Below, piece by piece: positions 1 through 59,917 of a DNA stretch of 64,000 nt. The translations under genes were made by a program, and so were the position numbers. Below the pieces are notes generated by a model. The model made no database searches and had not been told where the DNA came from. It saw nothing but the letters and a program-made list of their open reading frames with translations. Where the stretch lies: assembly GCF_000497125.1 (NCBI RefSeq), contig NC_090602.1, positions 1,302,001 through 1,366,000 of the forward strand, given 5' to 3'. The stretch's first letter is position 1; each line of letters starts with the position of its first letter. The stretch is from Spironucleus salmonicida (lineage: Eukaryota).

Positions 1-281
1 ATATCATATTAGATATCGGATAGAAACTTAGACGAACTCGTCAAAACCGGTATAATATTGTCCACTAGGGCCTTGTTAAGCTGTTCTAGCGTCGTTACCC
101 GACGTGCAGTTACCCCCTCTACCTCGAATCCTCCTACAAAAACCGCTTAGCAAAAGCTTTTCATTCGCTTTAGCGAAGTGGGATGATCTAGTTCTAGGCA
201 GAATGCTGTGATTTATAACCGGGACAGGTAGATGGTCACGGCAGTGCCAACCTCTCCCGCACCGATTACAAGGACTCTCAT
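1..281 (-). CDS. yqeB: YqeB-family protein, 5' part (runs off the window)
   Basis: ATG at 281, MRVLVIGAGEVGTAVTIYLSRLQ...; identical to the complete copies. Confidence 0.8.
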
Positions 282-899
282 TCGAAATAATATATGAATC
301 AATATATAATAACGGCTTCCACTTACATCTGAAATTAAACATAGAATGCCTGCACATTCACTGCAATGATTTCCACCATTATTGACTCCTATGTACAATT
401 CAACGATGCAAAATTCTATCCCACAAATTGATTTTATTATCCGTTGATTGTGTTAGCTCAACTTTGTTACTGCATTTAAGTCTTATAGGCAACATTGTTG
501 AAGCCCTTAATATTTGTGAAGATTTGAAGCCATGATCGTAATTTCACATTAGTAACTAACGCAATAGTGTCCTTTTAGGCTTATAGAAATATATGATATA
601 TAGAAAACAAATGACAGGTGGTTCCAGTTAAAATAATGGCCTTAATTTATATTTAAGCTTCATACTGGAGAAAAGTTAGAGTTTTTCATTTTATTTATTT
701 ATACTAGCCGTTTATGAAATTTATATCGTACTCCTGACTGGCACTCGTAATTTTCGATATTTAATCATCATTTTATCTGTGCCTCCAATGATAGAGCTTA
801 AACACTACTGTTACATTTTTTGTTCTTTGGCAATTTTCTCAAACCGATGAATTTATCCTGCTACACACCTTCACACCCTCAGCATCAGTTGAGGAGCGC

Positions 900-1100
900 G
901 TGATCCGGCCGCTGCTGGACTGCACGCAGGGGGACGTGCTGGCATTCACCGGTGCGTTCGCGGTGGAATTCGTGAGCTCCGACGCAGCCGAGTGCGACTT
1001 CGCTGCACGGGGAGGTGGAAAGGAGAGCGAAAGGGGGAGAATCCGGCGGTTCCTAGACGGGCGCGACTACGGCTGGTTCGCGGAAATGGGCTATGAATGA
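900..1100 (+). pseudogene. 3' fragment of a TtcA/Ctu1-like tRNA thiolation gene (copy 1)
   Basis: VIRPLLDCTQGDVLAF...EC...SERGRIRRFL resembles the TtcA C-terminal IRPL region. No upstream SGGKDS PP-loop; in-frame TGA at 789. Confidence 0.55.
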
Positions 1101-1113
1101 GAAACGGGTACAA

Positions 1114-1464
1114 TCACTTGTTGGAGGAATACTTGGAGATGGCAGACTCGGCGTGAGACTGGGCGGCCTTGTAGAGCTCACCACCGTTAAGCACGAGTTT
1201 GGCGGCAGCGGTGATCTGGGACTTACCAATGGTGTTACGGTGGTGCTGTCTGGCGATCTGGGAGGCTTCGGAGGCGATTCTCTCGAAGAGATCGTTGACC
1301 ATGGAGTTCATGGCGGCCATGCACTGCTTGGAGACACCACAGTCAGCGTCCTTGCCCTGGAAGGCATCAGAGGCCTTGAGAACCTTGAGGATGTAGGTAC
1401 CATAGGTCTCTACTCTCTTCATCTTACGGGTAGCTTTGGCTTCAGGGGCGGATCCAAGGGACAT
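1114..1464 (-). CDS. H2B: Histone H2B (copy 1)
   Basis: ETYGTYILKVLK, MNSMVNDLFERIASEAS, TI..QI..AAKLVL.GEL.K.A, AISKY; 116 aa; ends AAG TGA. Confidence 0.97.
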   Translation of the reverse strand: MSLGSAPEAKATRKMKRVETYGTYILKVLKASDAFQGKDADCGVSKQCMAAMNSMVNDLFERIASEASQIARQHHRNTIGKSQITAAAKLVLNGGELYKAAQSHAESAISKYSSNK

Positions 1465-1472
1465 TTTAAATA

Positions 1473-1481
1473 GTGGAGTGG
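1473..1481 (-). promoter_or_regulatory. C-rich promoter motif CCACTCCAC upstream of H2B
   Basis: Lies 8 nt upstream of the ATG. CCACTCC also precedes RPS20, endosulfine, poly(A) polymerase and the genes at 32327 and 45226. Confidence 0.65.
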
Positions 1482-1691
1482 AAATGCCAATCTAGGCACC
1501 TGGGCCTAGTCACTTGCGCAGGCTCACTTTTGCGAAATCACTATACTCCACATTATTATATTGCATATACCTCGTATACTCGGGAGAAAGCGAAATAGCC
1601 CAAAGATGGCTGAGTCTACTTTTGTGTACACTTCATCCTACAACGGCGACTTAATGACTTCGCACCTAGGCAGGCAGCCTCCAGTGGTCAG

Positions 1692-2531
1692 TCAGATAGC
1701 ACGATCTCTGATGCTCTACCACGCCATTAACTCACAAATCACGCTGCCGGCGACACACCTGGCGCGCGTGCTCAAGGTGTACACGAACGCAGCATCGCAT
1801 AGCGGGTCGATTTCACACAGCAGCTGGTTCTTTAAGACTACAGCCCCTGTCTCAAGTAGACCTAACAGCAGTCCAGATACAGGCGCACATACGCTGAGCT
1901 GGCCTCGGCGATGGGTCACAGCATCCATTTTTCGGTTGAGGCACTCGCCGGACTCTGTCTACAGGCCCCCCTCATCAGACTCAATGACTCCTATCGGGTC
2001 TCCTATTTTTACAAACTCTCCAATCCCTCGTTTTGCTGTCCACCTCCCGCCGATCTCAGCGCGGGCCTCGCGTTCGAATGAATATCCACCGATTAGCTCT
2101 GGCTCCGACATTTTCTACTGTTTCTAGCGTGTTCCCGCATAGCGCCCCGACTTTTAGATTACAATACTGGCCGTTAGACCCTCTATTCCCCAATTGGTTG
2201 AAATTGTCACCCCTTGGAATTTGAATTGGGTGGGTGCGGTGTTAACAACAATATCATATTAGATATCGGATAGAAACTTAGACGAACTCGTCAAAACCGG
2301 TATAATATTGTCCACTAGGGCCTTGTTAAGCTGTTCTAGCGTCGTTACCCGACGTGCAGTTACCCCCTCTACCTCGAATCCTCCTACAAAAACCGCTTAG
2401 CAAAAGCTTTTCATTCGCTTTAGCGAAGTGGGATGATCTAGTTCTAGGCAGAATGCTGTGATTTATAACCGGGACAGGTAGATGGTCACGGCAGTGCCAA
2501 CCTCTCCCGCACCGATTACAAGGACTCTCAT
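1692..2531 (-). CDS. yqeB: YqeB-family selenium-dependent molybdenum hydroxylase system protein, 279 aa
   Basis: Continuous frame with TAR=Gln. N-terminal VLVIGAGEVGTAV, LELDHPTSLKR..SFCQAV..G..EVEGVTA; C-terminal LIGGYSFERE.RA, IGEFVKIGDPIG, APVSGLLLGLL, EIDP, TLSTRARCVAGSV. Confidence 0.82.
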
Positions 2532-3149
2532 TCGAAATAATATATGAATCAATATATAATAACGGCTTCCACTTACATCTGAAATTAAACATAGAATGCC
2601 TGCACATTCACTGCAATGATTTCCACCATTATTGACTCCTATGTACAATTCAACGATGCAAAATTCTATCCCACAAATTGATTTTATTATCCGTTGATTG
2701 TGTTAGCTCAACTTTGTTACTGCATTTAAGTCTTATAGGCAACATTGTTGAAGCCCTTAATATTTGTGAAGATTTGAAGCCATGATCGTAATTTCACATT
2801 AGTAACTAACGCAATAGTGTCCTTTTAGGCTTATAGAAATATATGATATATAGAAAACAAATGACAGGTGGTTCCAGTTAAAATAATGGCCTTAATTTAT
2901 ATTTAAGCTTCATACTGGAGAAAAGTTAGAGTTTTTCATTTTATTTATTTATACTAGCCGTTTATGAAATTTATATCGTACTCCTGACTGGCACTCGTAA
3001 TTTTCGATATTTAATCATCATTTTATCTGTGCCTCCAATGATAGAGCTTAAACACTACTGTTACATTTTTTGTTCTTTGGCAATTTTCTCAAACCGATGA
3101 ATTTATCCTGCTACACACCTTCACACCCTCAGCATCAGTTGAGGAGCGC

Positions 3150-3350
3150 GTGATCCGGCCGCTGCTGGACTGCACGCAGGGGGACGTGCTGGCATTCACC
3201 GGTGCGTTCGCGGTGGAATTCGTGAGCTCCGACGCAGCCGAGTGCGACTTCGCTGCACGGGGAGGTGGAAAGGAGAGCGAAAGGGGGAGAATCCGGCGGT
3301 TCCTAGACGGGCGCGACTACGGCTGGTTCGCGGAAATGGGCTATGAATGA
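3150..3350 (+). pseudogene. 3' fragment of a TtcA-like gene (copy 2)
   Basis: Identical to 900-1100. Confidence 0.55.
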
Positions 3351-3363
3351 GAAACGGGTACAA

Positions 3364-3714
3364 TCACTTGTTGGAGGAATACTTGGAGATGGCAGACTCG
3401 GCGTGAGACTGGGCGGCCTTGTAGAGCTCACCACCGTTAAGCACGAGTTTGGCGGCAGCGGTGATCTGGGACTTACCAATGGTGTTACGGTGGTGCTGTC
3501 TGGCGATCTGGGAGGCTTCGGAGGCGATTCTCTCGAAGAGATCGTTGACCATGGAGTTCATGGCGGCCATGCACTGCTTGGAGACACCACAGTCAGCGTC
3601 CTTGCCCTGGAAGGCATCAGAGGCCTTGAGAACCTTGAGGATGTAGGTACCATAGGTCTCTACTCTCTTCATCTTACGGGTAGCTTTGGCTTCAGGGGCG
3701 GATCCAAGGGACAT
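3364..3714 (-). CDS. H2B: Histone H2B (copy 2)
   Basis: Identical to copy 1. Confidence 0.97.
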   Translation of the reverse strand: MSLGSAPEAKATRKMKRVETYGTYILKVLKASDAFQGKDADCGVSKQCMAAMNSMVNDLFERIASEASQIARQHHRNTIGKSQITAAAKLVLNGGELYKAAQSHAESAISKYSSNK

Positions 3715-3941
3715 TTTAAATAGTGGAGTGGAAATGCCAATCTAGGCACCTGGGCCTAGTCACTTGCGCAGGCTCACTTTTGCGAAATCACTATACTCCA
3801 CATTATTATATTGCATATACCTCGTATACTCGGGAGAAAGCGAAATAGCCCAAAGATGGCTGAGTCTACTTTTGTGTACACTTCATCCTACAACGGCGAC
3901 TTAATGACTTCGCACCTAGGCAGGCAGCCTCCAGTGGTCAG

Positions 3942-4781
3942 TCAGATAGCACGATCTCTGATGCTCTACCACGCCATTAACTCACAAATCACGCTGCCGG
4001 CGACACACCTGGCGCGCGTGCTCAAGGTGTACACGAACGCAGCATCGCATAGCGGGTCGATTTCACACAGCAGCTGGTTCTTTAAGACTACAGCCCCTGT
4101 CTCAAGTAGACCTAACAGCAGTCCAGATACAGGCGCACATACGCTGAGCTGGCCTCGGCGATGGGTCACAGCATCCATTTTTCGGTTGAGGCACTCGCCG
4201 GACTCTGTCTACAGGCCCCCCTCATCAGACTCAATGACTCCTATCGGGTCTCCTATTTTTACAAACTCTCCAATCCCTCGTTTTGCTGTCCACCTCCCGC
4301 CGATCTCAGCGCGGGCCTCGCGTTCGAATGAATATCCACCGATTAGCTCTGGCTCCGACATTTTCTACTGTTTCTAGCGTGTTCCCGCATAGCGCCCCGA
4401 CTTTTAGATTACAATACTGGCCGTTAGACCCTCTATTCCCCAATTGGTTGAAATTGTCACCCCTTGGAATTTGAATTGGGTGGGTGCGGTGTTAACAACA
4501 ATATCATATTAGATATCGGATAGAAACTTAGACGAACTCGTCAAAACCGGTATAATATTGTCCACTAGGGCCTTGTTAAGCTGTTCTAGCGTCGTTACCC
4601 GACGTGCAGTTACCCCCTCTACCTCGAATCCTCCTACAAAAACCGCTTAGCAAAAGCTTTTCATTCGCTTTAGCGAAGTGGGATGATCTAGTTCTAGGCA
4701 GAATGCTGTGATTTATAACCGGGACAGGTAGATGGTCACGGCAGTGCCAACCTCTCCCGCACCGATTACAAGGACTCTCAT
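3942..4781 (-). CDS. yqeB: YqeB-family protein
   Basis: Identical to 1692-2531. Confidence 0.82.
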
Positions 4782-5399
4782 TCGAAATAATATATGAATC
4801 AATATATAATAACGGCTTCCACTTACATCTGAAATTAAACATAGAATGCCTGCACATTCACTGCAATGATTTCCACCATTATTGACTCCTATGTACAATT
4901 CAACGATGCAAAATTCTATCCCACAAATTGATTTTATTATCCGTTGATTGTGTTAGCTCAACTTTGTTACTGCATTTAAGTCTTATAGGCAACATTGTTG
5001 AAGCCCTTAATATTTGTGAAGATTTGAAGCCATGATCGTAATTTCACATTAGTAACTAACGCAATAGTGTCCTTTTAGGCTTATAGAAATATATGATATA
5101 TAGAAAACAAATGACAGGTGGTTCCAGTTAAAATAATGGCCTTAATTTATATTTAAGCTTCATACTGGAGAAAAGTTAGAGTTTTTCATTTTATTTATTT
5201 ATACTAGCCGTTTATGAAATTTATATCGTACTCCTGACTGGCACTCGTAATTTTCGATATTTAATCATCATTTTATCTGTGCCTCCAATGATAGAGCTTA
5301 AACACTACTGTTACATTTTTTGTTCTTTGGCAATTTTCTCAAACCGATGAATTTATCCTGCTACACACCTTCACACCCTCAGCATCAGTTGAGGAGCGC

Positions 5400-5600
5400 G
5401 TGATCCGGCCGCTGCTGGACTGCACGCAGGGGGACGTGCTGGCATTCACCGGTGCGTTCGCGGTGGAATTCGTGAGCTCCGACGCAGCCGAGTGCGACTT
5501 CGCTGCACGGGGAGGTGGAAAGGAGAGCGAAAGGGGGAGAATCCGGCGGTTCCTAGACGGGCGCGACTACGGCTGGTTCGCGGAAATGGGCTATGAATGA
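5400..5600 (+). pseudogene. 3' fragment of a TtcA-like gene (copy 3)
   Basis: Identical to 900-1100. Confidence 0.55.
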
Positions 5601-5613
5601 GAAACGGGTACAA

Positions 5614-5964
5614 TCACTTGTTGGAGGAATACTTGGAGATGGCAGACTCGGCGTGAGACTGGGCGGCCTTGTAGAGCTCACCACCGTTAAGCACGAGTTT
5701 GGCGGCAGCGGTGATCTGGGACTTACCAATGGTGTTACGGTGGTGCTGTCTGGCGATCTGGGAGGCTTCGGAGGCGATTCTCTCGAAGAGATCGTTGACC
5801 ATGGAGTTCATGGCGGCCATGCACTGCTTGGAGACACCACAGTCAGCGTCCTTGCCCTGGAAGGCATCAGAGGCCTTGAGAACCTTGAGGATGTAGGTAC
5901 CATAGGTCTCTACTCTCTTCATCTTACGGGTAGCTTTGGCTTCAGGGGCGGATCCAAGGGACAT
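5614..5964 (-). CDS. H2B: Histone H2B (copy 3)
   Basis: Identical to copy 1. Confidence 0.97.
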   Translation of the reverse strand: MSLGSAPEAKATRKMKRVETYGTYILKVLKASDAFQGKDADCGVSKQCMAAMNSMVNDLFERIASEASQIARQHHRNTIGKSQITAAAKLVLNGGELYKAAQSHAESAISKYSSNK

Positions 5965-6191
5965 TTTAAATAGTGGAGTGGAAATGCCAATCTAGGCACC
6001 TGGGCCTAGTCACTTGCGCAGGCTCACTTTTGCGAAATCACTATACTCCACATTATTATATTGCATATACCTCGTATACTCGGGAGAAAGCGAAATAGCC
6101 CAAAGATGGCTGAGTCTACTTTTGTGTACACTTCATCCTACAACGGCGACTTAATGACTTCGCACCTAGGCAGGCAGCCTCCAGTGGTCAG

Positions 6192-7031
6192 TCAGATAGC
6201 ACGATCTCTGATGCTCTACCACGCCATTAACTCACAAATCACGCTGCCGGCGACACACCTGGCGCGCGTGCTCAAGGTGTACACGAACGCAGCATCGCAT
6301 AGCGGGTCGATTTCACACAGCAGCTGGTTCTTTAAGACTACAGCCCCTGTCTCAAGTAGACCTAACAGCAGTCCAGATACAGGCGCACATACGCTGAGCT
6401 GGCCTCGGCGATGGGTCACAGCATCCATTTTTCGGTTGAGGCACTCGCCGGACTCTGTCTACAGGCCCCCCTCATCAGACTCAATGACTCCTATCGGGTC
6501 TCCTATTTTTACAAACTCTCCAATCCCTCGTTTTGCTGTCCACCTCCCGCCGATCTCAGCGCGGGCCTCGCGTTCGAATGAATATCCACCGATTAGCTCT
6601 GGCTCCGACATTTTCTACTGTTTCTAGCGTGTTCCCGCATAGCGCCCCGACTTTTAGATTACAATACTGGCCGTTAGACCCTCTATTCCCCAATTGGTTG
6701 AAATTGTCACCCCTTGGAATTTGAATTGGGTGGGTGCGGTGTTAACAACAATATCATATTAGATATCGGATAGAAACTTAGACGAACTCGTCAAAACCGG
6801 TATAATATTGTCCACTAGGGCCTTGTTAAGCTGTTCTAGCGTCGTTACCCGACGTGCAGTTACCCCCTCTACCTCGAATCCTCCTACAAAAACCGCTTAG
6901 CAAAAGCTTTTCATTCGCTTTAGCGAAGTGGGATGATCTAGTTCTAGGCAGAATGCTGTGATTTATAACCGGGACAGGTAGATGGTCACGGCAGTGCCAA
7001 CCTCTCCCGCACCGATTACAAGGACTCTCAT
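6192..7031 (-). CDS. yqeB: YqeB-family protein
   Basis: Identical to 1692-2531. Confidence 0.82.
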
Positions 7032-7649
7032 TCGAAATAATATATGAATCAATATATAATAACGGCTTCCACTTACATCTGAAATTAAACATAGAATGCC
7101 TGCACATTCACTGCAATGATTTCCACCATTATTGACTCCTATGTACAATTCAACGATGCAAAATTCTATCCCACAAATTGATTTTATTATCCGTTGATTG
7201 TGTTAGCTCAACTTTGTTACTGCATTTAAGTCTTATAGGCAACATTGTTGAAGCCCTTAATATTTGTGAAGATTTGAAGCCATGATCGTAATTTCACATT
7301 AGTAACTAACGCAATAGTGTCCTTTTAGGCTTATAGAAATATATGATATATAGAAAACAAATGACAGGTGGTTCCAGTTAAAATAATGGCCTTAATTTAT
7401 ATTTAAGCTTCATACTGGAGAAAAGTTAGAGTTTTTCATTTTATTTATTTATACTAGCCGTTTATGAAATTTATATCGTACTCCTGACTGGCACTCGTAA
7501 TTTTCGATATTTAATCATCATTTTATCTGTGCCTCCAATGATAGAGCTTAAACACTACTGTTACATTTTTTGTTCTTTGGCAATTTTCTCAAACCGATGA
7601 ATTTATCCTGCTACACACCTTCACACCCTCAGCATCAGTTGAGGAGCGC

Positions 7650-7850
7650 GTGATCCGGCCGCTGCTGGACTGCACGCAGGGGGACGTGCTGGCATTCACC
7701 GGTGCGTTCGCGGTGGAATTCGTGAGCTCCGACGCAGCCGAGTGCGACTTCGCTGCACGGGGAGGTGGAAAGGAGAGCGAAAGGGGGAGAATCCGGCGGT
7801 TCCTAGACGGGCGCGACTACGGCTGGTTCGCGGAAATGGGCTATGAATGA
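7650..7850 (+). pseudogene. 3' fragment of a TtcA-like gene (copy 4)
   Basis: Identical to 900-1100. Confidence 0.55.
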
Positions 7851-7863
7851 GAAACGGGTACAA

Positions 7864-8214
7864 TCACTTGTTGGAGGAATACTTGGAGATGGCAGACTCG
7901 GCGTGAGACTGGGCGGCCTTGTAGAGCTCACCACCGTTAAGCACGAGTTTGGCGGCAGCGGTGATCTGGGACTTACCAATGGTGTTACGGTGGTGCTGTC
8001 TGGCGATCTGGGAGGCTTCGGAGGCGATTCTCTCGAAGAGATCGTTGACCATGGAGTTCATGGCGGCCATGCACTGCTTGGAGACACCACAGTCAGCGTC
8101 CTTGCCCTGGAAGGCATCAGAGGCCTTGAGAACCTTGAGGATGTAGGTACCATAGGTCTCTACTCTCTTCATCTTACGGGTAGCTTTGGCTTCAGGGGCG
8201 GATCCAAGGGACAT
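7864..8214 (-). CDS. H2B: Histone H2B (copy 4)
   Basis: Identical to copy 1. Confidence 0.97.
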   Translation of the reverse strand: MSLGSAPEAKATRKMKRVETYGTYILKVLKASDAFQGKDADCGVSKQCMAAMNSMVNDLFERIASEASQIARQHHRNTIGKSQITAAAKLVLNGGELYKAAQSHAESAISKYSSNK

Positions 8215-8441
8215 TTTAAATAGTGGAGTGGAAATGCCAATCTAGGCACCTGGGCCTAGTCACTTGCGCAGGCTCACTTTTGCGAAATCACTATACTCCA
8301 CATTATTATATTGCATATACCTCGTATACTCGGGAGAAAGCGAAATAGCCCAAAGATGGCTGAGTCTACTTTTGTGTACACTTCATCCTACAACGGCGAC
8401 TTAATGACTTCGCACCTAGGCAGGCAGCCTCCAGTGGTCAG

Positions 8442-9281
8442 TCAGATAGCACGATCTCTGATGCTCTACCACGCCATTAACTCACAAATCACGCTGCCGG
8501 CGACACACCTGGCGCGCGTGCTCAAGGTGTACACGAACGCAGCATCGCATAGCGGGTCGATTTCACACAGCAGCTGGTTCTTTAAGACTACAGCCCCTGT
8601 CTCAAGTAGACCTAACAGCAGTCCAGATACAGGCGCACATACGCTGAGCTGGCCTCGGCGATGGGTCACAGCATCCATTTTTCGGTTGAGGCACTCGCCG
8701 GACTCTGTCTACAGGCCCCCCTCATCAGACTCAATGACTCCTATCGGGTCTCCTATTTTTACAAACTCTCCAATCCCTCGTTTTGCTGTCCACCTCCCGC
8801 CGATCTCAGCGCGGGCCTCGCGTTCGAATGAATATCCACCGATTAGCTCTGGCTCCGACATTTTCTACTGTTTCTAGCGTGTTCCCGCATAGCGCCCCGA
8901 CTTTTAGATTACAATACTGGCCGTTAGACCCTCTATTCCCCAATTGGTTGAAATTGTCACCCCTTGGAATTTGAATTGGGTGGGTGCGGTGTTAACAACA
9001 ATATCATATTAGATATCGGATAGAAACTTAGACGAACTCGTCAAAACCGGTATAATATTGTCCACTAGGGCCTTGTTAAGCTGTTCTAGCGTCGTTACCC
9101 GACGTGCAGTTACCCCCTCTACCTCGAATCCTCCTACAAAAACCGCTTAGCAAAAGCTTTTCATTCGCTTTAGCGAAGTGGGATGATCTAGTTCTAGGCA
9201 GAATGCTGTGATTTATAACCGGGACAGGTAGATGGTCACGGCAGTGCCAACCTCTCCCGCACCGATTACAAGGACTCTCAT
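8442..9281 (-). CDS. yqeB: YqeB-family protein (terminal copy, unique upstream flank)
   Basis: Identical CDS; repeat identity stops about 50 bp upstream of its ATG. Confidence 0.82.
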
Positions 9282-10423
9282 TCGAAATAATATATGAATC
9301 AATATATAATAACGGCTTCCAGTTACATCTCGTAATTTTTTTAGAAAATGATAAGCTCAAATGATTTATACTTGTCTCATCCAAATATATTTAGAAAAGG
9401 AAAAATCTATACTCATATGTTAAAGTAATATAGATCTTACTATGAATAGTTTGTTTTACCAGATTGTTGGGTATCTATTTTTGATAAAAACTGTTTTTAT
9501 TAAGATCCTTAAAATATACGATTTTTATTAAAGTAACATTCTTTATAGTATAGAAAAGGTTAAGTAACTTCACATATGTTGTATCATTAAACAATAGCTA
9601 TGGATAATTTTACGATTCCAGAATTATTCAACCAATATCTTCAAAATGATACAACAGCAAAAATACATAAATCGATAAAACAAACTGTATAACAATTTAC
9701 AAAATTTGAATCAAAAAGTAAAAATATTAAAAAACATGATGAAAACTTGACTCCAAAATCGGAACATTTAGATACTTAAGAAAAAAATCATAAAAAGCAT
9801 ATGATTAAAGATTTTTATTAAACTCATATTAAATCATGACGTGAATGCAATTATTTAATATTAATATCAAATAACAGTATGTTATTTTTTTATTTTATCC
9901 TTTGAATTCATGGTGAATTTATTATATGAGTTGTAATAAAGACGCAACAAATTCATATGCATAAAAATAATGCTAATAATAAATAATTTGGGCATTTACT
10001 CATAAGCTTCCGTTTTATTTTAAAGGATATTGATTTTTAAGATCTTAATTGTATTAAATTAATATTAAATTAATAGATTCATATTAAAAATTATAAATAT
10101 GTAGTTATGATGTCAATAAATCTATAAAAACTAGATAGTAAATCTCAAAAAATTATTTGCGAAATACTAATACTATATTATATTAAAAATTAATAATGTT
10201 GTCTTTATAAGTTAAATAATTTTTTAATATAACATTTTAAATAATTAGTATAAAATTGCACACTATAATTTAACTAAATAGAATAACAATACTGAATCAC
10301 TAAATATAATGAAGAAAACCTTATATTTAGTAATAATTTATTACTTTTGTCAATTATTTACTTAAATAAGATTAAAATAATTAATAATAATTGAATATAA
10401 TATTTGATATACTTAATAGTTCA

Positions 10424-10843
10424 ATGAATTAAAGATGCTCATACTGTGCTTCAGAAGATCATACAATAACCTCTTGTCCAAAATAGAAGCAATGCTTTAT
10501 ATGTCTTAAAACATAGTGTAACTGTATTAAATAATATCTTTAAAAAATTGATAAATCATTACTTTAAAAACAATATGTTAATGAATGTTACCGTTGTAAT
10601 GGTGATCATACTATTTTTGAATGCCCTGAAAACGACGAATTATAATAAAAGTTTGATATTTTATCAGCTATTCCTGTTTAGGTAATTTAAAATGGATATT
10701 AGTTTGGTAAAATGTCTCTTAAAAGAAGAGAAGAGAAAAAAGGTAATTAGTTATGCTGTATTTGTGGTGGTACCTCACATGATTCTCGAGGCTGCTAAAG
10801 CTAAAACTTTAGACTACATTTTTCGGAAAGAGTATATAAGTGA
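10424..10843 (+). CDS. CCHC zinc-knuckle protein (possibly Air1/2-like), 139 aa
   Basis: CSYCASEDHTITSC, CYRCNGDHTIFEC, CICGGTSHDSRGC; ends AAG TGA. Confidence 0.8.
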
Positions 10844-16863: not shown

Positions 16864-17649
16864 TCACTGAACTAGGAAGTACGATGCCGGGAGCATAACT
16901 TTTTGGCGCGCGAACTCGCTCGCCGCGCTGCCAATTTCGCAGAGGTTTTCGAAGGTCAGCCGGCAGTCCTGCTGGAGGCGAAACAGCAAAAAGCTGCAAA
17001 ACGCATCGCCGGCCCCGACGACACTTGCGGGCTGCTGAATTTCGTCTATGAAAATTCGCTTTTTGCGACTTTGAAATTGAATTTCCACTCCATCGCTAAA
17101 AGTAGTGAAAACCGCCTTTCCGCTGAAATCCAGATTTCCGACCTTATCTTCATCTGACTTTTTGATGATTTTCACGAATTTCAATATTTAGAGCATTATG
17201 TCCGTCTGGAAATCGTTCAGCGGGGAGCGAAAATTGCAGTCGAAAATTAGGAGCGTTTCGGTGGCCAAAGATCTCAATAAGTGAAGGTTTTGAGCGTTCA
17301 AAATGGCGATTCCGCTTAAAAATACGATTTCTGGAAGACGAGGGAGTGGCGGCAGTATGAATTCAGATTTGTAAAAAGAGTAAACCGTCGTTTTTGAGTC
17401 AGAAAAGCCCACTGCTAAATTAGTTTTTTCTGTTTATTGTGGAAGTAGATTTATTTTTGCCTTTGTTAGTTGACTTTTTATGATTTGAGCCAATTAGTCA
17501 TTTCCAAGTTATGTTATAAAAACATAGTCCGCCTTGAGATAGGTGAGATTGAAAGATACATTTAGACAACCGCCGCCCGGGGAACCGTTAATCTAGGAAT
17601 TTTTGAAAATAATATCGTAATTTAGAGATCCAATAACGGTTATTTTCAT
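16864..17649 (-). CDS. PfkB-family carbohydrate kinase, 261 aa
   Basis: GSLNYD, PGGGCLNV, LGND, FDCNFR, KKSDED, VGAGDAF. Confidence 0.9.
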
Positions 17650-18465
17650 TTTATAATAATATGATATTTAGTATTTAATGTGAATAAAATATAAATATTA
17701 AGAATATGTAATAAATAAAATTACTATATAATAATTAAGTTATATCAAAAAATCGATATTATTTTTAAAGAAGTTGTTTGTTGAGTTTTATTAATAAACA
17801 ATTTAATTCTTCAATATGCTAGGATATTGATAAATATTATATACAATTACACACTATTATTTATAAACATAAATTTAGAATGTGATAGTGAAAATGGATA
17901 TTATAATATGTTAGGTTTAAGTTTACTGTTAATGGTAAATTTAAACAATCATTTTATAATGATTTTAATTAGCTGAATATGAAACAGGATATATAGAAAT
18001 TAGTAATAATAGTTAATTACTTAGCAGAATAGATTATGTGGGTATTTAGGAATTCAATCTTAGCGATGTAGGTTTCAAAATAAAATTATATACATATTTC
18101 AGAGTTTCGACGATAGAAATAGTAGCCTTTACTAATTAAATAATCAGGTATAAAAAGATATTATTTAATAATAATTTTTTTTAAAGTACAAATCACATAT
18201 AGTATTTTTATGATAAAAATAGAAGTCTAACATTTAAGATAAAGATGATTATGCTATCTTGTCAGTATAGTGTAGGTAGAATAATAATGCAGCCTTAAAA
18301 TATAATTTTATAAGCTACGATGTTTATTTAATTCTATTGCATTTAATTATAGATGTTTGTTTCTAAACAAAAGTAAACCTTTATTACTCTTATAATGCTA
18401 ACTGGTAGCAATGCGAATTTATCAGAATATAAATATATTTGACTAAGCCCCCAAACATAATATAA

Positions 18466-20421
18466 TCACTTTCTTTAGAAATTTTTCTTAATACTAGGTG
18501 CTGACGTTAATACAAAGCTATCTAGATTACCTTCGACCTAAGGAGTAGATCCACCAAGTTTTCCTTTTAATCTTTTTTAGTTTTTCAAATATTCCGACTC
18601 AGACATTGTAGAACTTCTAGTGAAAAATGATGAACCCAGGGATGTTTAAGATTAAGTTAGTAACTATGATACCATAATTTTTTGATTAGTTAAAACTTGG
18701 AGTTCAGTTTATGTTTACACGCATTTACCTTAACAAGCTATACTGTATAATTATTTTATTAATTATTTAACATCATTTGAAAGATTTTACTAATTTAATG
18801 TTTGTAAATATTATATTACTTATTAAGTATGTGGACAATAGTTTTCTTTTGTATTAGTCGATAAATCATTAAGCGTAAGGCCAGGAGAAAATAATTAGTT
18901 ATTATTATAATTTGTATCTGTATTTGGTTAACCGTTGGCTAAGTTCTACCCAGGCTAACCGTGGGCTAAGTTCTGCCCAGACTAACCGTTGACTAAGTTC
19001 TGCCCAGGCTAACCGTTGGCTAAGTTCTACCCAGACTAACCGTTGGCTAGGTTCTACCCAGACTAACCGTTGACTAGGTTCTACCCAGGCTAACCGTTGG
19101 CTAAGTTCTACCCAGGCTAACCGTTGACTAGGTTCTACCCAGACTAACCGTTGGCTAAGTTCTACCCAGACTAACCGTTGACTAGGTTCTACCCAGGCTA
19201 ACCGTTGACTAGGTTCTACCCAGACTAACCGTTGACTAGGTTCTACCCAGGCTAACCGTTGGCTAAGTTCTACCCAGGCTAACCGTTGACTAGGTTCTAC
19301 CCAGACTAACCGTTGGCTAAGTTCTACCCAGACTAACCGTTGACTAGGTTCTACCCAGGCTAACCGTTGACTAGGTTCTACCCAGACTAACCGTTGACTA
19401 GGTTCTACCCAGGCTAACCGTTGACTAGGTTCTACCCAGACTAACCGTTGACTAAGTTCTACCCAGACTAACCGTTGGCTAGGTTCTACCCAGACTAACC
19501 GTTGACTAGGTTCTACCCAGACTAACCGTTGACTAGGTTCTACCCAGACTAACCGTTGGCTAAGTTTTTGTTAAATTAGTTCCTATTTATTATAACATTT
19601 TCTTCAAACAAATTCCTTTTGTCTTATTTGGAAGATGTGATAATAAAACTAGGTATACCATCAGAAACTTATTCCAATTTAAACTAAGTACTCATGGTTT
19701 CTTTTTACTTTTATTTTGTTTATTTCTTATCATTATGCTGATGCTTTTTTTATTTAGCTATAGTATCTTTAACTTTAGTCACCTCTAGTGCAGAATCCTC
19801 ATTATCAATTACTTATTCTGTTTGGATTTAATTATCTTATTAAAGTATAATTTATTTTCCCTGTTACTATAGTTAAATTTCAAGTTACCTCACATCTTCA
19901 TATAATTATTCTTATGTCTTTAAACTAGACAAATATTAAGAATATAGGTTATCAGTTTGATCGACATTAGCGATACCATCATCTGGTTTATATAGCATAT
20001 TATTATTGTTTCTTTAATTAAGCTATTCTCTCAGATTTTAAATAATTTACGTATAATTTTTAACTGGAAATTTACTTAATGACAATATTTATTATAATTA
20101 TAATTCATAACTAGTTATAATGCTTTCCTGCATATTACATTTTTGAATAAGTGTGTTTTGATTATTTTGAACTGGAAAAGAAATATTAAAATTAGAAATA
20201 CTGTCTTGCATATACTTTAACAGTTCAATTTCTGCTGAATTTATCATTGATTAATAAATAGGAAGAATATTTTTTGGTTTTTCATGATCAGTGAGAGTGT
20301 TACAGTTTAATTTAGGTTCAAATAAAACATGCAATGGCCTATCTTATATTTATTTTCGCAAATTATAAAATATTTAAATGATTTACTTTTGAACACTTTA
20401 TGAAAAAAAACTTTAATCCAT
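18466..20421 (-). CDS. Hypothetical protein with a 9-aa tandem repeat, about 651 aa
   Basis: Same frame on both sides of the 27-bp array, which reads NL(A/V)NGQ(S/P)GQ; ends AAG TGA. Confidence 0.7.
18929..19565. repeat. 27-bp coding minisatellite, about 23-24 copies
   Basis: Unit ctaaccgttg(a/g)cta(a/g)gttctacccag(a/g), with three recurrent dimorphic sites. Confidence 0.97.
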
Positions 20422-20524
20422 TTTTTTATTATATTTATTATATACTTATATAAAATTAAAGAATTGTTATTAATAAAAACCTTATATATTAAATTACTTC
20501 ATTTAGGTTTTGGATATCTAATAA

Positions 20525-32669: not shown

Positions 32670-33248
32670 ATGTCACTTCTGCTTCCAGGTGGTAAAAAGA
32701 ATGCTTATATTTAGAACAATCTTCAAAAAATACATACCATTTTCCCTGATGGTTCAGAATGTATAGAAGAGTTTCATACCACAGAATAACTATATGTCAG
32801 CAGAAAATGGAGGAAAGTAGACCAAATGGGCAGATTATCAGACTGGTCAGTAGAAATTGGAGAAGTAGAGCAGAAAAAAGAAATTTTCACTGGATTATTC
32901 GAATCAGCAGATACTCCAATTGTCAACCGCTTAGATTCAGAAGGGTATTATATTTTTAAAATAACCAACCTACCACCTCCAGAGTCGAACTACAGAGTAG
33001 ATGTTGATGCCAAGGACCTTATTATTAGGACCACCAACAAAAAGTACTTCAAAAAGATCCAAATCAACGACTTAGAGTGGTAGAACATCCCCCTCGTGCA
33101 GCAATTTGTTAAAGTAAAGCACCACAATAACTGCCTAATGGTTTTCTACTAGAAGCCCCCTGGTATGGTCCAGTTTGAAAAAGCAGCACGCCAGGCGCGC
33201 CTCCAGGGCTTCTAAAACAAGAAGGAGGGTGAGTGCCCGGGCCAGTGA
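32670..33248 (+). CDS. DPCD: DPCD family protein, 192 aa
   Basis: KIHTIFPDGSECIEEF, RKWRK, W.VEIGE, IIRTTNKKYFKKI, ends ECPGQ. Confidence 0.9.
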
Positions 33249-33257
33249 TAACTTTCC

Positions 33258-34649
33258 TCACTCGTACGCCTGCATCATTATTTTCAGCTTCGCCAGCCTG
33301 CTCTGCATATTGCTGAGCTCTTGGAACGTCGCGGACAGCAGCCTGCGAATTTCCTCGACCTCCGCTTTCCGCAGCTTGTAGTCGCCGGTTTTGCTCAGAT
33401 TTATCGCGTCCATGCGCCGCTTCAGCCCATTTCGCTCCTGCTGCACTCTGTATATTTTCTCCTCCAGGAGCCGCCGCGTGACGCCGAGCTTGGCCTTTTC
33501 CTGCATTTTGGCCTGTTTCGACGTTGCTTTTGGCTTCTCGGGCCGGTTGCGCAGGATACCGCACTTCTCGTTCACGCGCTCGAACTCACGCTCGATTTCA
33601 GCGCTCAGCTGCCGCTTCTGGACTGGGCTGAAGACGCTCGGATTGAGGCTCTCGAAGTCGACCTCCGAGAAACGCAGCGGTGTCGCGGAGCGCTGCGAAG
33701 CACCGAGATTCGTGCCGTACTTGGTGTTGAGCTACGCCTGCAGGCCATCACCTGGCTGGTTCGCCTCGAAATCGACGTACTTGACGCTAATTTTCGACGC
33801 CGGCCGCGCTGCGAACACGGAGTCCACCTTCACTGCCTGCTTGAAACTAGCATTTTTCTGCCCATTCTGGTCGAACAGGTCGATCTGGCAGTTCACGTTT
33901 CGGTCCTCAAACTCGCACTGCGTGGAGGCCATTTGCTTGTCGGAATCGAGTTTTTGAAGCCAGGTCGATGTGTACTGCTTTTACGACAGAATAATGTTTA
34001 TGTCCTTGTTGTTCTCTTTTTATGTTATTATATTAGTCACGAACGGTGTCAGCGTTTCGTCGTTGATGTTTGAGAGCTATTTGGTGATAATCTAGTTCTA
34101 GAACGTGGTGAGCTCAACTGACCGTTCTCGTAGTGTACTGAATTTCTACTGTTCCTGCTTTATTATATACTCTGTTTTCACTATTTGCTCTCGAAGGGAT
34201 GACTCTTACTAGATAAAACCGATTTTTTGGTAAATTTGGGACTGGCACTGATTTTCTAGGTCTATGTGCTGGTACTTGAAATTTTCAACAAGCTGCTCGC
34301 GTTTCTATTGGTGGGTTTTTTCAAGTGTTAAAAGCTGCTGCTTTTCAATTTGAAAATTATGTAGTAATTCATGTTGCGATTTGATTTTTACGTTTAGCTA
34401 TGTGCTATAATTTTGGTAAAAATCTTCATTTTCTCTTGCTAATTCTTAATTATTTAGATCTATTTATTCTACTTTTTTCTTCAGCCGCTATACTCTTGTT
34501 TCAGAATTTTAATACTCAGAAAGTCTCTATTTTTTCATTGATTCCAACGCTTAAACTCTTTCTTTAAGCTAAATCATTTTGAGTATCAGTTCACCATGCA
34601 AGTCGTTAGTATATGCTACACGGTCAGCCGCATGTATTTTATGATCCAT
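33258..34649 (-). CDS. Coiled-coil hypothetical protein, 463 aa
   Basis: ORFs 33258-33575 and 33732-33932 share a frame with ATG 34649 under TAR=Gln; ends GAG TGA. Confidence 0.7.
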
Positions 34650-47448: not shown

Positions 47449-48405
47449 ATGCTCATTGATCTTCATTCACACTCCACTCATTCAGATGGTTCATACTCTC
47501 CATTCTTATTAATATAGCATGCCATAGCACTTAATCTGACTTATTTTGCAATAACAGATCATGATAATATCGATTCGATCAAAACACTTGAAAAATACAA
47601 ATTTCCTCATAATTTTACTTATATTCCTGGTGTTGAGATCACCACAAAATCAAAATGTAACAATGAAATATATCACTTAATAGTGTTGTTTCCATCCAAA
47701 ATGAAGCCTAATATTACACCATTTGCAGATATTTTTGAAATTTAGAAAAAAGATAGAAAAATTAGAATGGAAAAGCTTTGGATAAAAATTTAGGAAACTA
47801 ATAATCTCAATTAATCATATTAAGACTTTTAAACCTACTTTGGTACACTTAATTCAACGTAAGTTCAAAAGATCCATTTTGCATAATTTCTGACTATCAA
47901 AAATATTTGTGTGGATATCAATTCCTGTTTTAAAACCCATTTAGACATAGTAGTAAAATCTAGTGAATATCTGTTATTAGAAGATATGATTGCTTTAGCA
48001 AAACATGAAAATGCTTACCCAATTTTGGCACATCCTTACTATTTAGCGAAAAACAAATCATCTGTTGATAAGTGTATCCCTATTTACTAAACTCTTGGAC
48101 TGCGGGCGTTAGAAGTGGAACATCCAGAATAGGATTCTGACCAAAGGGATAATTTAAGAAAATTAGCTAGAGAATTGGGTCTTCAGGTAAGTATTGCAGG
48201 TGATTTTCACGGTCCTGAGCGCGAGAAAAATGGTTATTTTTTGGGAAATTTAGAGGGAAATAAACGAACTATGGAATGGGAAAAAGTATATTTGATGAAA
48301 GATATGGGATATAATTCAGGTATGGATATTTAGAAAGGCTTGGCTATGTCTGTAGCGCTTTTGGCATAAATCGGAGTTGTTATATTTATGGCTTGCCGTG
48401 GGTGA
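47449..48405 (+). CDS. PHP-domain phosphoesterase (TrpH/YciV-like) with a C-terminal hydrophobic anchor, 318 aa
   Basis: DLHSHSTHSDG, AITDHD, IPGVEIT, LAHP, LEVEHP, GDFHG; tail GLAMSVALLAQIGVVIFMACRG. Confidence 0.9.
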
Positions 48406-57677: not shown

Positions 57678-58991
57678 TCACTTTCCATATATTTTTATGG
57701 CATTCCATCTTTCTATAATCTCATTTTAGAGATTAACCTATTGAAACCTGTCAATATGTGCAGAAAATCTTGCCTATAATCCATATGCACATCCCCTTGC
57801 TGTCATTTATTACTCTCTAATAACCTCACATTCGCAAATATCTGCTAGTATTTAGCAAAATTTATTACTACGTGATACCCCTCCAGAAATTCTTATAGTC
57901 TTATCTTTTATCAAACCTATTTTGTCATTAATTTCAAGTGCAATTCCTTGCAAAACCGCAAATGCAAAATGCCCAGGAAGAGAAGAGAATGAAGCTCCTG
58001 TTAAAATTCCTTGTGAAGGAACAAAAATAATGCCATTTGATGAGTCTACGTCTACTAGAATTAAATCAATTGGTGTATCGTCTAGAATATGTATTTTACG
58101 CAACCAGTCAATATATCCTGTAGTAACGGGAATAAATGACTCGTACGCCTTGATAATCTGATATTTATTATCGTAATAACCTGTTGTTACAACTGTTTAG
58201 CTAGAATTTGTATGTTAGCATTATGATAACATGAAAGCGCCATATCCCATTGAAATTTTAACCTCGTTTGGTTTGTTTACAAAAAATCCTGCCTATGCAT
58301 CCCCAATTACAAAATTAAGAGGAATTTTAAATGGGCCCGTAGTGAATCTACCAAAAACTTAATTAGATTAAACCAACTCAATATGTGAAGTTTCTGTTGG
58401 AAAATCAAATAGTTAAAAAAGCTCAGGATCCCAATAATTGGTGTTAATATTATATAATCCAGTATGGCATGCCATAGATGGCTCTGTAACAATTCTACCA
58501 AACATTCTGAATAGTAAATATGTATCTAAAGTTCCTATAATGTGATTTTTACTGTATTTATATCCGGTTTATTTTTACCACCATTTATACTTAAAAATTG
58601 TCTATAAATAGCTCATATTAGCACCAGTTTTTTGTTAAAATATTTAATTATTACATTTATAATCATTAACTATGTCTTGACATCTCGTATCTGCCCATGA
58701 TATTCCGCATATACTCATTTCTGTCTAACGATCAAAAATAACCATGCTGTTACGCTAAATCGCTAATGAACAGCTTTTTATGCATTTAAGATCTAATTTA
58801 TCGTGTATCATTTGCTTTGCTACGTCAGCTATCCCTAAATTAATATGGCAAAATATCTCCTCTGGATCAAATTCGAACTAGCCTGGACATTCCGATAGAA
58901 TAGTATGATTAACTTTTTTTTTATATTTCAACTTTTAATCAATAAATGCATATACTGAAGTTGATTTGCTGCCCTGGTCTATAACTAGCAT
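57678..58991 (-). CDS. Glycerol kinase / FGGY-family kinase, 437 aa
   Basis: IDQGSKST, EFDPEEI, SWADTR, GTLDTYL, IGDAQA, K..MGYGAF, SGGVSRS. Confidence 0.88.
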
Positions 58992-59134
58992 TTAAGAAAA
59001 CCTCAATATCAATGTTATTTTTAATATGTTTTTATTATTTAATAGGTAAATCACAAATTATATATTTAAATAAATCGAGTAGTTTATTATAAAGTTAACT
59101 TAATTATAAAATAATAGCAGTGTCTTAAAAATAA

Positions 59135-59917
59135 TCAGCTAATTAACCTGTATAACCAATATGCGGCTATTAGAACTATCATTATCAGAACACAAATCAT
59201 CATGCATTTATCTCCCTTCATTAGTTTTTTACGTAAATGCTCGCTGGTGATCAATACTCCTTTAAGCTATTCATTAGCCGTTGTCAGTTGTTCCTGAACT
59301 GTATCTACCTTTTCATCCATGACTGTTTACAGCTCTGCATGACCCATTGCCTGGTTTTTAATAACTTTCAACTTTTCAATACCTAGCTGTGCTTTTCTAT
59401 CTATTTCTATGTTTAAATCCTCGACTTTCTATTTAGCCTCCTCGTATGACTTAAATTCTGGGAGAAGATCATCTAATTTTGCATCTTAAATATATTTTGG
59501 AACACCTAGAGCCACTTCCGAGGCCTATGATTTAACATTTTATGCAGAATTTTTATCAAATTATTGTAACGTATCATAAGCAGACTAAAACGTATCATGA
59601 GCTTTTTTTAAGTCTGAATTTTTCAAAACTGAAATTGAGTGAATATATTTTTATAAGACATCAAATTCTTAACGTATTTTAAATGAATGTGCTGCTAGTA
59701 CTGCTGGAGATGCATTTGAACTAATTAACTCTGCTTTTTGTCTTAGAAGATCCTTTAATGACAGAACAATCTATGATCCATCTGCCATAATTTATTCGTC
59801 ATTATTTAGCTCTTTATGAGAGATTTTATTTTCATCCGTAAGAATAGGATGATCTGGGGCAGGTTCATGGGTCATCTCTTCGATTATTTAGCACATTAAT
59901 GCTCTAGCATTCTCCAT
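59135..59917 (-). CDS. Qc-SNARE-like protein (SYP7-like), 260 aa
   Basis: SNARE motif LKVIKNQAMGHAELQTVMDEKVDTV..QL.TANEQLK plus a C-terminal TM. Confidence 0.7.

Follow-up and report, generated by a model that had tools for sequence, protein, structure and literature searches.

A 2,250-bp tandem array in Spironucleus salmonicida that multiplies histone H2B together with a diverged YqeB-like gene and a truncated gene fragment

We analyzed a window of 64,000 nucleotides from the Spironucleus salmonicida genome (assembly GCF_000497125.1, contig NC_090602.1, positions 1,302,001 to 1,366,000 of the forward strand; all coordinates below are those of the window). Its left end is occupied by a head-to-tail array of identical 2,250-bp units, and each complete unit carries a histone H2B gene, a strongly diverged relative of the bacterial YqeB family (here called the YqeB-like gene), and the 3' end of a third, truncated gene related to TtcA. 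The array is very probably real, and it has the appearance of a plain segmental amplification that took passengers along, not of a novel type of histone repeat. We lean toward the view that it is a genuine tandem amplification kept uniform by recombination, in which H2B dosage would more likely be what is gained, the YqeB-like gene being carried along as a passenger.

Comparing the window with itself at an offset of 2,250 bp gave 0 mismatches across positions 1 to 7071, a degree of identity that cannot have arisen by chance. Positions 1 to 9321 consist of four complete units (1-2250, 2251-4500, 4501-6750, and 6751-9000) and 321 bp of a fifth, and a repeat search returned five copies, head to tail with a spacing of 2,250. 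An earlier note on this DNA, made from the letters alone, had described an apparently perfect 2,250-bp tandem of more than four periods ending at position 9330. The alignment of the units bears out the period over all 7,071 compared positions, and the end point also holds: the first mismatch falls at 9322, the next 8 nucleotides (9323-9330) match again, and similarity stops beyond them. The 40 nucleotides upstream of the rightmost YqeB-like start codon have the same sequence as the internal junctions; the one mismatch and the 8 shared nucleotides come after them. The units are thus head to tail and identical, with identical junctions, as in a tandem segmental duplication. The array is already under way at base 1 and crosses the left edge of the window, so its total size lies outside our view. 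The G+C content of the unit is 47%, against 22 to 40%, mostly below 30%, in the flank.

Read along the minus strand, a unit consists of the YqeB-like open reading frame (ORF), a spacer of 227 bp, H2B, a GC-rich stretch of about 290 bp, and about 500 bp with about 30% GC. Domain searches covered 38 of the 40 stop-to-stop ORFs of at least 40 amino acids in and just around one unit. Only H2B matched the Histone family among these 38 ORFs, and none of them contained a reverse-transcriptase domain; the combination that the earlier note had reported, H2B and a 279-codon YqeB-like gene on one strand with no H2A, H3, or H4, was therefore recovered by the domain scan. A search of the unit for tRNAs found none, and Rfam gave no match in the unit, either at the gathering threshold or at E values up to 1. 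No telomere repeat of the type (TAGG)n occurs within the 64-kb window. Neither blastn nor tblastx matched the unit to any other part of the window, which also leaves no source there for the 575-bp spacer that lies at every junction; this spacer has no family match.

The H2B protein scores 50.7 bits against PF00125 Histone, above the curated cut-off of 26.4 (E = 2.7e-13), and all 60 of the listed PDB matches are H2B chains, the best with an E value of 2.4e-35. Its nearest named relatives in the databases come from Giardia muris (51%) and, over the part available, Hexamita inflata (65%). An alignment of 11 sequences has 29 invariant columns, and a loop insertion is present in all 11, including G. 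muris and H. inflata. The G+C content at third codon positions (GC3) is 0.72 and the gene has no TAA or TAG codons, compared with a GC3 of 0.20 to 0.39 and many TAA and TAG codons in 10 flank genes. AAAA stands immediately 5' of the ATG and follows a C-rich run; at the stop codon the sequence is AAGTGA. The 2014 genome paper (PMC3916229), in the part available to us, reports three such signals: AAA as the initiator, a C-rich element that lies near -10 and shows enrichment in highly expressed genes, and AGTGA as a stop and poly(A) signal. From these features the gene looks like the working, highly expressed H2B of the lineage. Downstream of H2B no stable hairpin was predicted, the fold being no better than those of shuffled sequences (z = +0.99), and the two Rfam thresholds given above yielded no histone 3' stem-loop. 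Between 9322 and 64000, none of 124 ATG-started ORFs of 95 to 230 amino acids matched Histone.

The GC-rich stretch 3' of H2B (56 to 66% GC) turned out to be the remnant of another gene. On the plus strand it contains a stop-to-stop frame of 102 codons without an ATG, and residues 34 to 102 of this frame are identical at 68 of 69 positions to residues 341 to 409 of P0258, a full-length S. salmonicida protein of 409 amino acids with a PP-loop domain (PF01171) at 211 to 368. The closest NCBIfam model to P0258 is TtcA, whose cut-off of 272 bits it misses with a score of 71. P0258 is recorded on a contig of 1,610,267 bp, which is also the length of the contig that carries the H2B and YqeB-like proteins of the window. 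The fragment and H2B run toward each other, and their stop codons lie 13 bp apart. As both the SGGKDS PP-loop motif and the start codon are absent, we regard the fragment as dead. Every unit thus contains the cut-off end of a neighboring gene, which points to a segmental duplication that ignored gene boundaries and not to a dedicated histone repeat. The TtcA-like identity of this stretch, as judged from the alignment, is new information here, and it adds a fragment of a third gene to a unit content that the earlier note had given, correctly but incompletely, as H2B and YqeB.

The YqeB-like ORF matches the NCBIfam model TIGR03309 (YqeB) with 107.4 bits (E = 8e-31), below the equivalog cut-off of 220; of its 14 nearest bacterial homologues, 13 score 266 to 351 against the same model and one scores 163.6. 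HMMER, run against 1.84 billion representative proteins, returned 599 homologues, the best with 32% identity (E = 1.8e-22); no close eukaryotic relative was among them, which leaves the S. salmonicida gene as the sole eukaryotic member of this kinship found here. The best homologue aligns to residues 3 to 269 in one stretch and others reach 275 to 277, with no frameshift; the homology is collinear over residues 3 to 275, nearly the full length of the protein, at 25 to 39% identity.

Under the standard code there is no YqeB frame, and genetic code 6, with TAA and TAG read as glutamine and TGA as the stop, is required. Eight in-frame codons are TAA or TAG (codons 23, 45, 91, 126, 136, 139, 191, and 272) and six are CAA or CAG. 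The long unspliced ORFs of the flank are likewise open only with TAA and TAG as glutamine, and these two codons make up the majority of glutamine codons in the 10 flank genes. Together with the H2B relatives named above, this heavy use of TAA and TAG supports a hexamitid origin of the DNA. Because eight such codons are impossible in a recent bacterial import, the YqeB-like gene must be an old resident. The openness of its frame was considered as evidence for the gene and discarded: with TGA as the sole stop, shuffling the unit 500 times gave some frame of at least 279 open codons in 246 cases. Since frame openness is uninformative, the support for the gene is its collinear homology. The earlier description of a full YqeB coding sequence accordingly survives on the strength of that homology, and not on that of a frame open only under the hexamitid code.

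The protein has moved far from its family. At columns with a conservation of at least 90% it agrees with the family in 18 of 28, where the 80 bacterial homologues have no fewer than 21 (median 27); at columns with at least 80% it agrees in 31 of 54, where the bacterial proteins have no fewer than 35 (median 50). It retains the fewest conserved columns of the 81 aligned sequences. Among the near-invariant residues of the family (D97, GPG 113-115, E126-T127-x-RGH, R223, K237, R244, and D255-K256), the GPG is missing, the RGH block is deleted, and a glutamine encoded by TAA stands at E126. An insertion of about 20 residues is also present. The N-terminal GxGxxG, IGG..ER, and DP motifs are retained, and the TAA and TAG codons other than that at E126 lie at variable or Q/E columns. 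A TATA-like run lies upstream of the gene, which has neither AAA before its ATG, nor a C-rich run, nor AGTGA at its stop. "Bacterial-type YqeB," as the earlier note had it, thus holds as a statement of homology only, given the score of 107 bits against 220 and the many near-invariant residues missing. Our reading is of a gene that was translated through a long period of its evolution and has left the functional constraints of the canonical family. The protein is probably still made, because the frame has stayed collinear with the bacterial homologues, but its canonical job has probably been lost as it drifted.

Domains of YqeC, XdhC, and molybdenum hydroxylases were found in none of 17 of the 44 ORFs of at least 250 amino acids, the 124 ORFs of 95 to 230 amino acids, or the 38 unit ORFs; eukaryotic genes need not cluster. 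A profile search for a solved structure of the family gave only a marginal match to a lipoyl domain (E = 0.0037). The relatives of the closest bacterial representative, which are Anaerolineales, Anaerolineaceae, and Bacillota metagenome-assembled genomes, are 41 to 42% identical to that representative. In a FastTree phylogeny the YqeB-like protein has the longest terminal branch (1.60; the next is 1.57) and a weak sister relationship (support of 0.55). No donor lineage can be named from these relatives or from the tree.

Two models of the YqeB-like gene are on record in public databases, one of 279 amino acids and one of 363 (P0100; 1692-2783, minus strand). The longer model takes 84 additional N-terminal residues and an upstream ATG from the junction spacer, which is possible in internal units only. 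As these residues are absent from the bacterial homologues and arise only in internal units, the 363-residue model is probably an artifact of position in the array. There is also a variant copy of 279 amino acids on record with the change R130C, in a column that is at least 80% conserved among the 80 bacterial homologues, so the perfect identity that the earlier note had assigned to the array holds inside the window and not beyond it. Both this variant and the 363-residue model are recorded on a contig of the same length as that with P0258. One complete form and partial forms of 234 and 204 amino acids occur in other database sources, the 234-residue form starting in the junction spacer, as expected where a repeat is broken at contig ends. 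An ATG-started ORF of 447 amino acids on the plus strand (7843-9186, with a copy per unit) was rejected as spurious, because it is antisense to two homology-supported genes (H2B and YqeB-like) and has no family match.

Table 1. Features of the tandem array and their positions in the window
Feature	Position	Strand	Basis or remark
Tandem array	1..9321	.	Period 2250 bp, four units + 321 bp; self-comparison, GC profile
Array right-hand end	9282..9330	.	Followed by unrelated AT-rich flank
YqeB-like coding sequence, 279 aa + TGA	8442..9281	-	Rightmost unit; NCBIfam TIGR03309 match
Identical YqeB-like copies	6192-7031, 3942-4781, 1692-2531; fifth cut by window edge, 1-281	-	
Spacer from YqeB-like stop to H2B start, 227 bp	8215..8441	-	Holds H2B upstream region; sequence read directly
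Histone H2B coding sequence, 116 aa + TGA	7864..8214	-	Pfam Histone match, PDB matches, alignment
Identical H2B copies	5614-5964, 3364-3714, 1114-1464	-	
Dead TtcA-like PP-loop gene, 3' fragment, last 67 codons + stop	7647..7850	+	Alignment to P0258
TtcA-like fragment copies	5397-5600, 3147-3350, 897-1100	+	
Spacer from junction to TtcA-like fragment, 575 bp	7072..7646	.	Mostly AT-rich, ~30% GC up to ~7575
575-bp spacer copies	4822-5396, 2572-3146, 322-896	.	

The flank to the right of the array contains ORFs for a CCT chaperonin subunit, a kinesin-associated protein, an SNF2 helicase, and a poly(A) polymerase, among others. Directly beside the array, a small ORF (10424-10843, plus strand) shows by eye three C-x2-C-x4-H-x4-C spacings, which are zinc-knuckle-like, and it has no Pfam match at the thresholds applied. 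The flank also encodes three enzymes, a PfkB sugar kinase (16864-17952, minus strand), a PHP-domain phosphoesterase (47449-48405, plus strand), and an FGGY carbohydrate kinase (57678-59207, minus strand), which belong to families typical of prokaryotes and could be candidates for lateral transfer. Within an ORF at 18466-20502 on the minus strand, positions 18929 to 19566 form a 27-bp minisatellite of 23.6 copies with 92% matches. It encodes GQNLVNGQS-like nonapeptides in a glutamine-rich product of 678 amino acids, for which the only Pfam matches are weak ones to Collagen and RTX repeats. Between 32000 and 34650 the local GC content rises to 40% and long ORFs overlap on opposite strands: one of 418 amino acids with only 11 TAA or TAG codons (32701-33957, plus strand) overlaps one of 463 (33258-34649, minus strand), and neither has a Pfam match.

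Parts of this picture are already in print. The 2014 genome paper (PMC3916229) reports, in the passages available to us, a gene linked to orphan SelD with "three identical homologs" in S. salmonicida and previously unseen in eukaryotes. In the accessible parts of two studies of 2008, by Haft and Self (PMC2276186) and by Zhang et al. (PMC2432076, where it is called HP1), the orphan-SelD-linked gene is TIGR03309/EF_2563/HP1. The passage in the genome paper gives no gene name, and we infer that its gene is the YqeB-like ORF of the window. The same passages describe a selenophosphate synthetase (SelD) fused to NifS and few selenoproteins, and their authors propose that the organism uses selenium other than as selenocysteine. 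According to the available text of a later study (PMC9509377), 19.2% of the S. salmonicida genome is duplicated (regions of at least 2 kb with at least 95% identity), often as single genes, and the mean GC content is 44.7% in duplicated regions and 30.7% elsewhere; the 47% of the array unit matches the former value. It also describes a tandem H4 array with reverse-transcriptase genes, given as ten copies or as nine copies plus five pseudo-copies, and a 5S array of 40 copies, and reports a manual check of coverage for the two largest duplications only. We found no mention in the literature of an H2B array or of a link between H2B and a YqeB-like gene in Spironucleus, supplementary tables, which may list it, being outside this survey. 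As identical copies of the gene and a single-histone H4 array were on record, the array is less of a surprise than it first appears.

The array, the content of its units, the truncated gene, and the divergence of the YqeB-like protein are shown directly; how the array expanded, which gene drove the expansion, and expression are matters that we infer from these data. Most likely a single duplication stood at the outset, in which a 2.25-kb segment of an ordinary locus was copied head to tail. This segment would have run from the end of the TtcA-like gene through H2B, which is convergent with it, to a long-resident YqeB-like gene of bacterial derivation that lies upstream of H2B on the same strand. 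Unequal crossing-over would have expanded the array, to at least five YqeB-like copies, and gene conversion would have kept the units identical and GC-rich; both processes are suggested by the identity of the units and their raised GC content. The likeliest benefit would be a larger supply of H2B template, H4 being amplified in this genome too, and both the YqeB-like gene and the dead piece of the TtcA-like gene would have been carried along. The earlier inference that near-zero divergence implies either a very recent amplification or concerted evolution is supported. Its pair of explanations, YqeB as a passenger of H2B or YqeB dosage as the selected trait, formally still stands, and the passenger side is favored because the TtcA-like fragment and the 575-bp spacer in each unit show that the amplification copied the whole content of a segment.

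Several points weigh against H2B dosage with passengers as the explanation. Polishing of repeats can homogenize units, so perfect identity may mislead. The comparison of the H2B start and stop motifs with PMC3916229 rests on descriptions in its text and not on logos. The left end of the array, where a full TtcA-like gene might adjoin the first unit, lies outside the window. The explanation does not account for the 575-bp spacer at every junction. The YqeB-like gene is not obviously junk, since its frame is collinear with the bacterial proteins over residues 3 to 275 without a frameshift, and it could itself be the selected gene. Finally, in a genome of which 19.2% is duplicated (PMC9509377, available text), an amplification without any benefit fits the sequence equally well.

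The last of these points leads to an account in which replication slippage and unequal recombination multiplied and maintained the segment neutrally, with no benefit of dosage, and in which uniformity reflects nothing but recency or gene conversion. Each unit does carry clearly nonfunctional cargo, namely, the truncated TtcA-like piece and the 575-bp spacer, and duplications elsewhere in the genome are often of single genes and have a raised GC content. We nevertheless consider such a neutral origin unlikely, if still worth serious attention, as the segment holds a core histone, H4 is likewise tandemly amplified (PMC9509377, available text), and H2B bears what look like the marks of a highly expressed gene. 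A far more doubtful proposition is that the locus has a single copy, or far fewer copies than assembled, and that the repeats were made or equalized by the assembler or polisher. Exact identity over 9.3 kb is just what consensus polishing would be expected to produce, the array runs off the window, and the published coverage check, in the text at hand, was limited to the two largest duplications. Distinct models are on record, however, in the form of the R130C copy and a 363-residue model that can be read only across an internal junction, the 234- and 204-residue partial forms come from other sources, and three identical copies were already reported in PMC3916229 (passages available). These same observations are why we hold the array to be very probably real.

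Selection may instead have acted on the YqeB-like gene, as a eukaryotic offshoot of SelD-linked selenium utilization that is needed in quantity, with H2B as the passenger. This is the least supported reading, yet the most interesting one. The near full-length collinearity, the retained GxGxxG, IGG..ER, and DP motifs, and the placement of TAA and TAG codons at variable or Q/E columns all speak for this reading, and the SelD-NifS fusion, the few selenoproteins, and the proposed non-selenocysteine use of selenium (PMC3916229, passages available) would give it a setting. We think it improbable: the protein is the most degenerate of the 81 aligned members and far under the family cut-off, in one recorded copy R130 is changed, at a position that at least 80% of the 80 bacterial homologues share, start and stop contexts of the H2B type are lacking, and no YqeC, XdhC, or molybdenum hydroxylase was found in the scanned ORFs of the window (17 of the 44 of at least 250 amino acids and the 124 of 95 to 230). 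A bolder version, which we would call a long shot, makes the YqeB-like protein a working, re-purposed descendant of the SelD-linked "third selenium utilization trait," the amplification adaptive, and H2B the hitchhiker. The motifs specific to molybdenum hydroxylases would have been shed in favor of another task in sulfur or selenium transfer, conceivably together with the adjacent TtcA-like tRNA thiolation enzyme. If that were true, it would offer a first handle on the use of selenium outside selenocysteine in a eukaryote, and expression and function of the YqeB-like gene would make the locus a test case for such use.

With H2B dosage as the preferred explanation, the array would be an instance of a compact parasite genome raising the dosage of a histone by amplifying the segment around one histone gene and not through an organized multi-histone repeat. 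Alongside H2B, an old gene of lateral origin and a piece of another gene are multiplied as well, and "expanded" copy numbers of foreign genes can thus be by-products of the amplification of a neighbor. Under a code in which TGA is the only stop, long open frames carry little meaning; the 447-residue ORF is an example of how easily spurious ones arise.

Among the closest known counterparts is the H4 array of the same species (PMC9509377, available text), which likewise holds a single histone type, head to tail, in a duplicated region of raised GC content. It differs in its five pseudo-copies and four interspersed reverse-transcriptase genes, whereas the cargo of the H2B array is the YqeB-like gene and the TtcA-like fragment and its units in the window are identical. 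The YqeB/EF_2563 proteins of bacteria and archaea (TIGR03309) share with the S. salmonicida protein collinearity over residues 3 to 275, a Rossmann-type GxGxxG, and a genome with selenophosphate synthetase (PMC3916229, passages available). Unlike them, the S. salmonicida gene is eukaryotic and nuclear, has eight TAA or TAG codons read as glutamine, has lost RGH and GPG, and is in tandem beside a histone. The classical replication-dependent histone repeats of animals, as outlined in the background available from PMC1872034, resemble the array in head-to-tail arrangement, concerted evolution, and high dosage. Theirs contain all core histones and an mRNA stem-loop, while only H2B is present here, with an apparent poly(A)-type signal, AAGTGA, overlapping the stop codon in place of the stem-loop. 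In Giardia intestinalis (PMC1872034, text available), H2B is of the same diplomonad type, and histone gene copies are identical in their coding sequence and 5' flank, which the authors ascribed to recent duplication or gene conversion; its histone mRNAs are polyadenylated. Giardia has low-copy histone genes at separate locations, with two H2b copies about 5.8 kb apart, whereas S. salmonicida has its H2B genes, at least four of them, strictly repeated in tandem every 2.25 kb.

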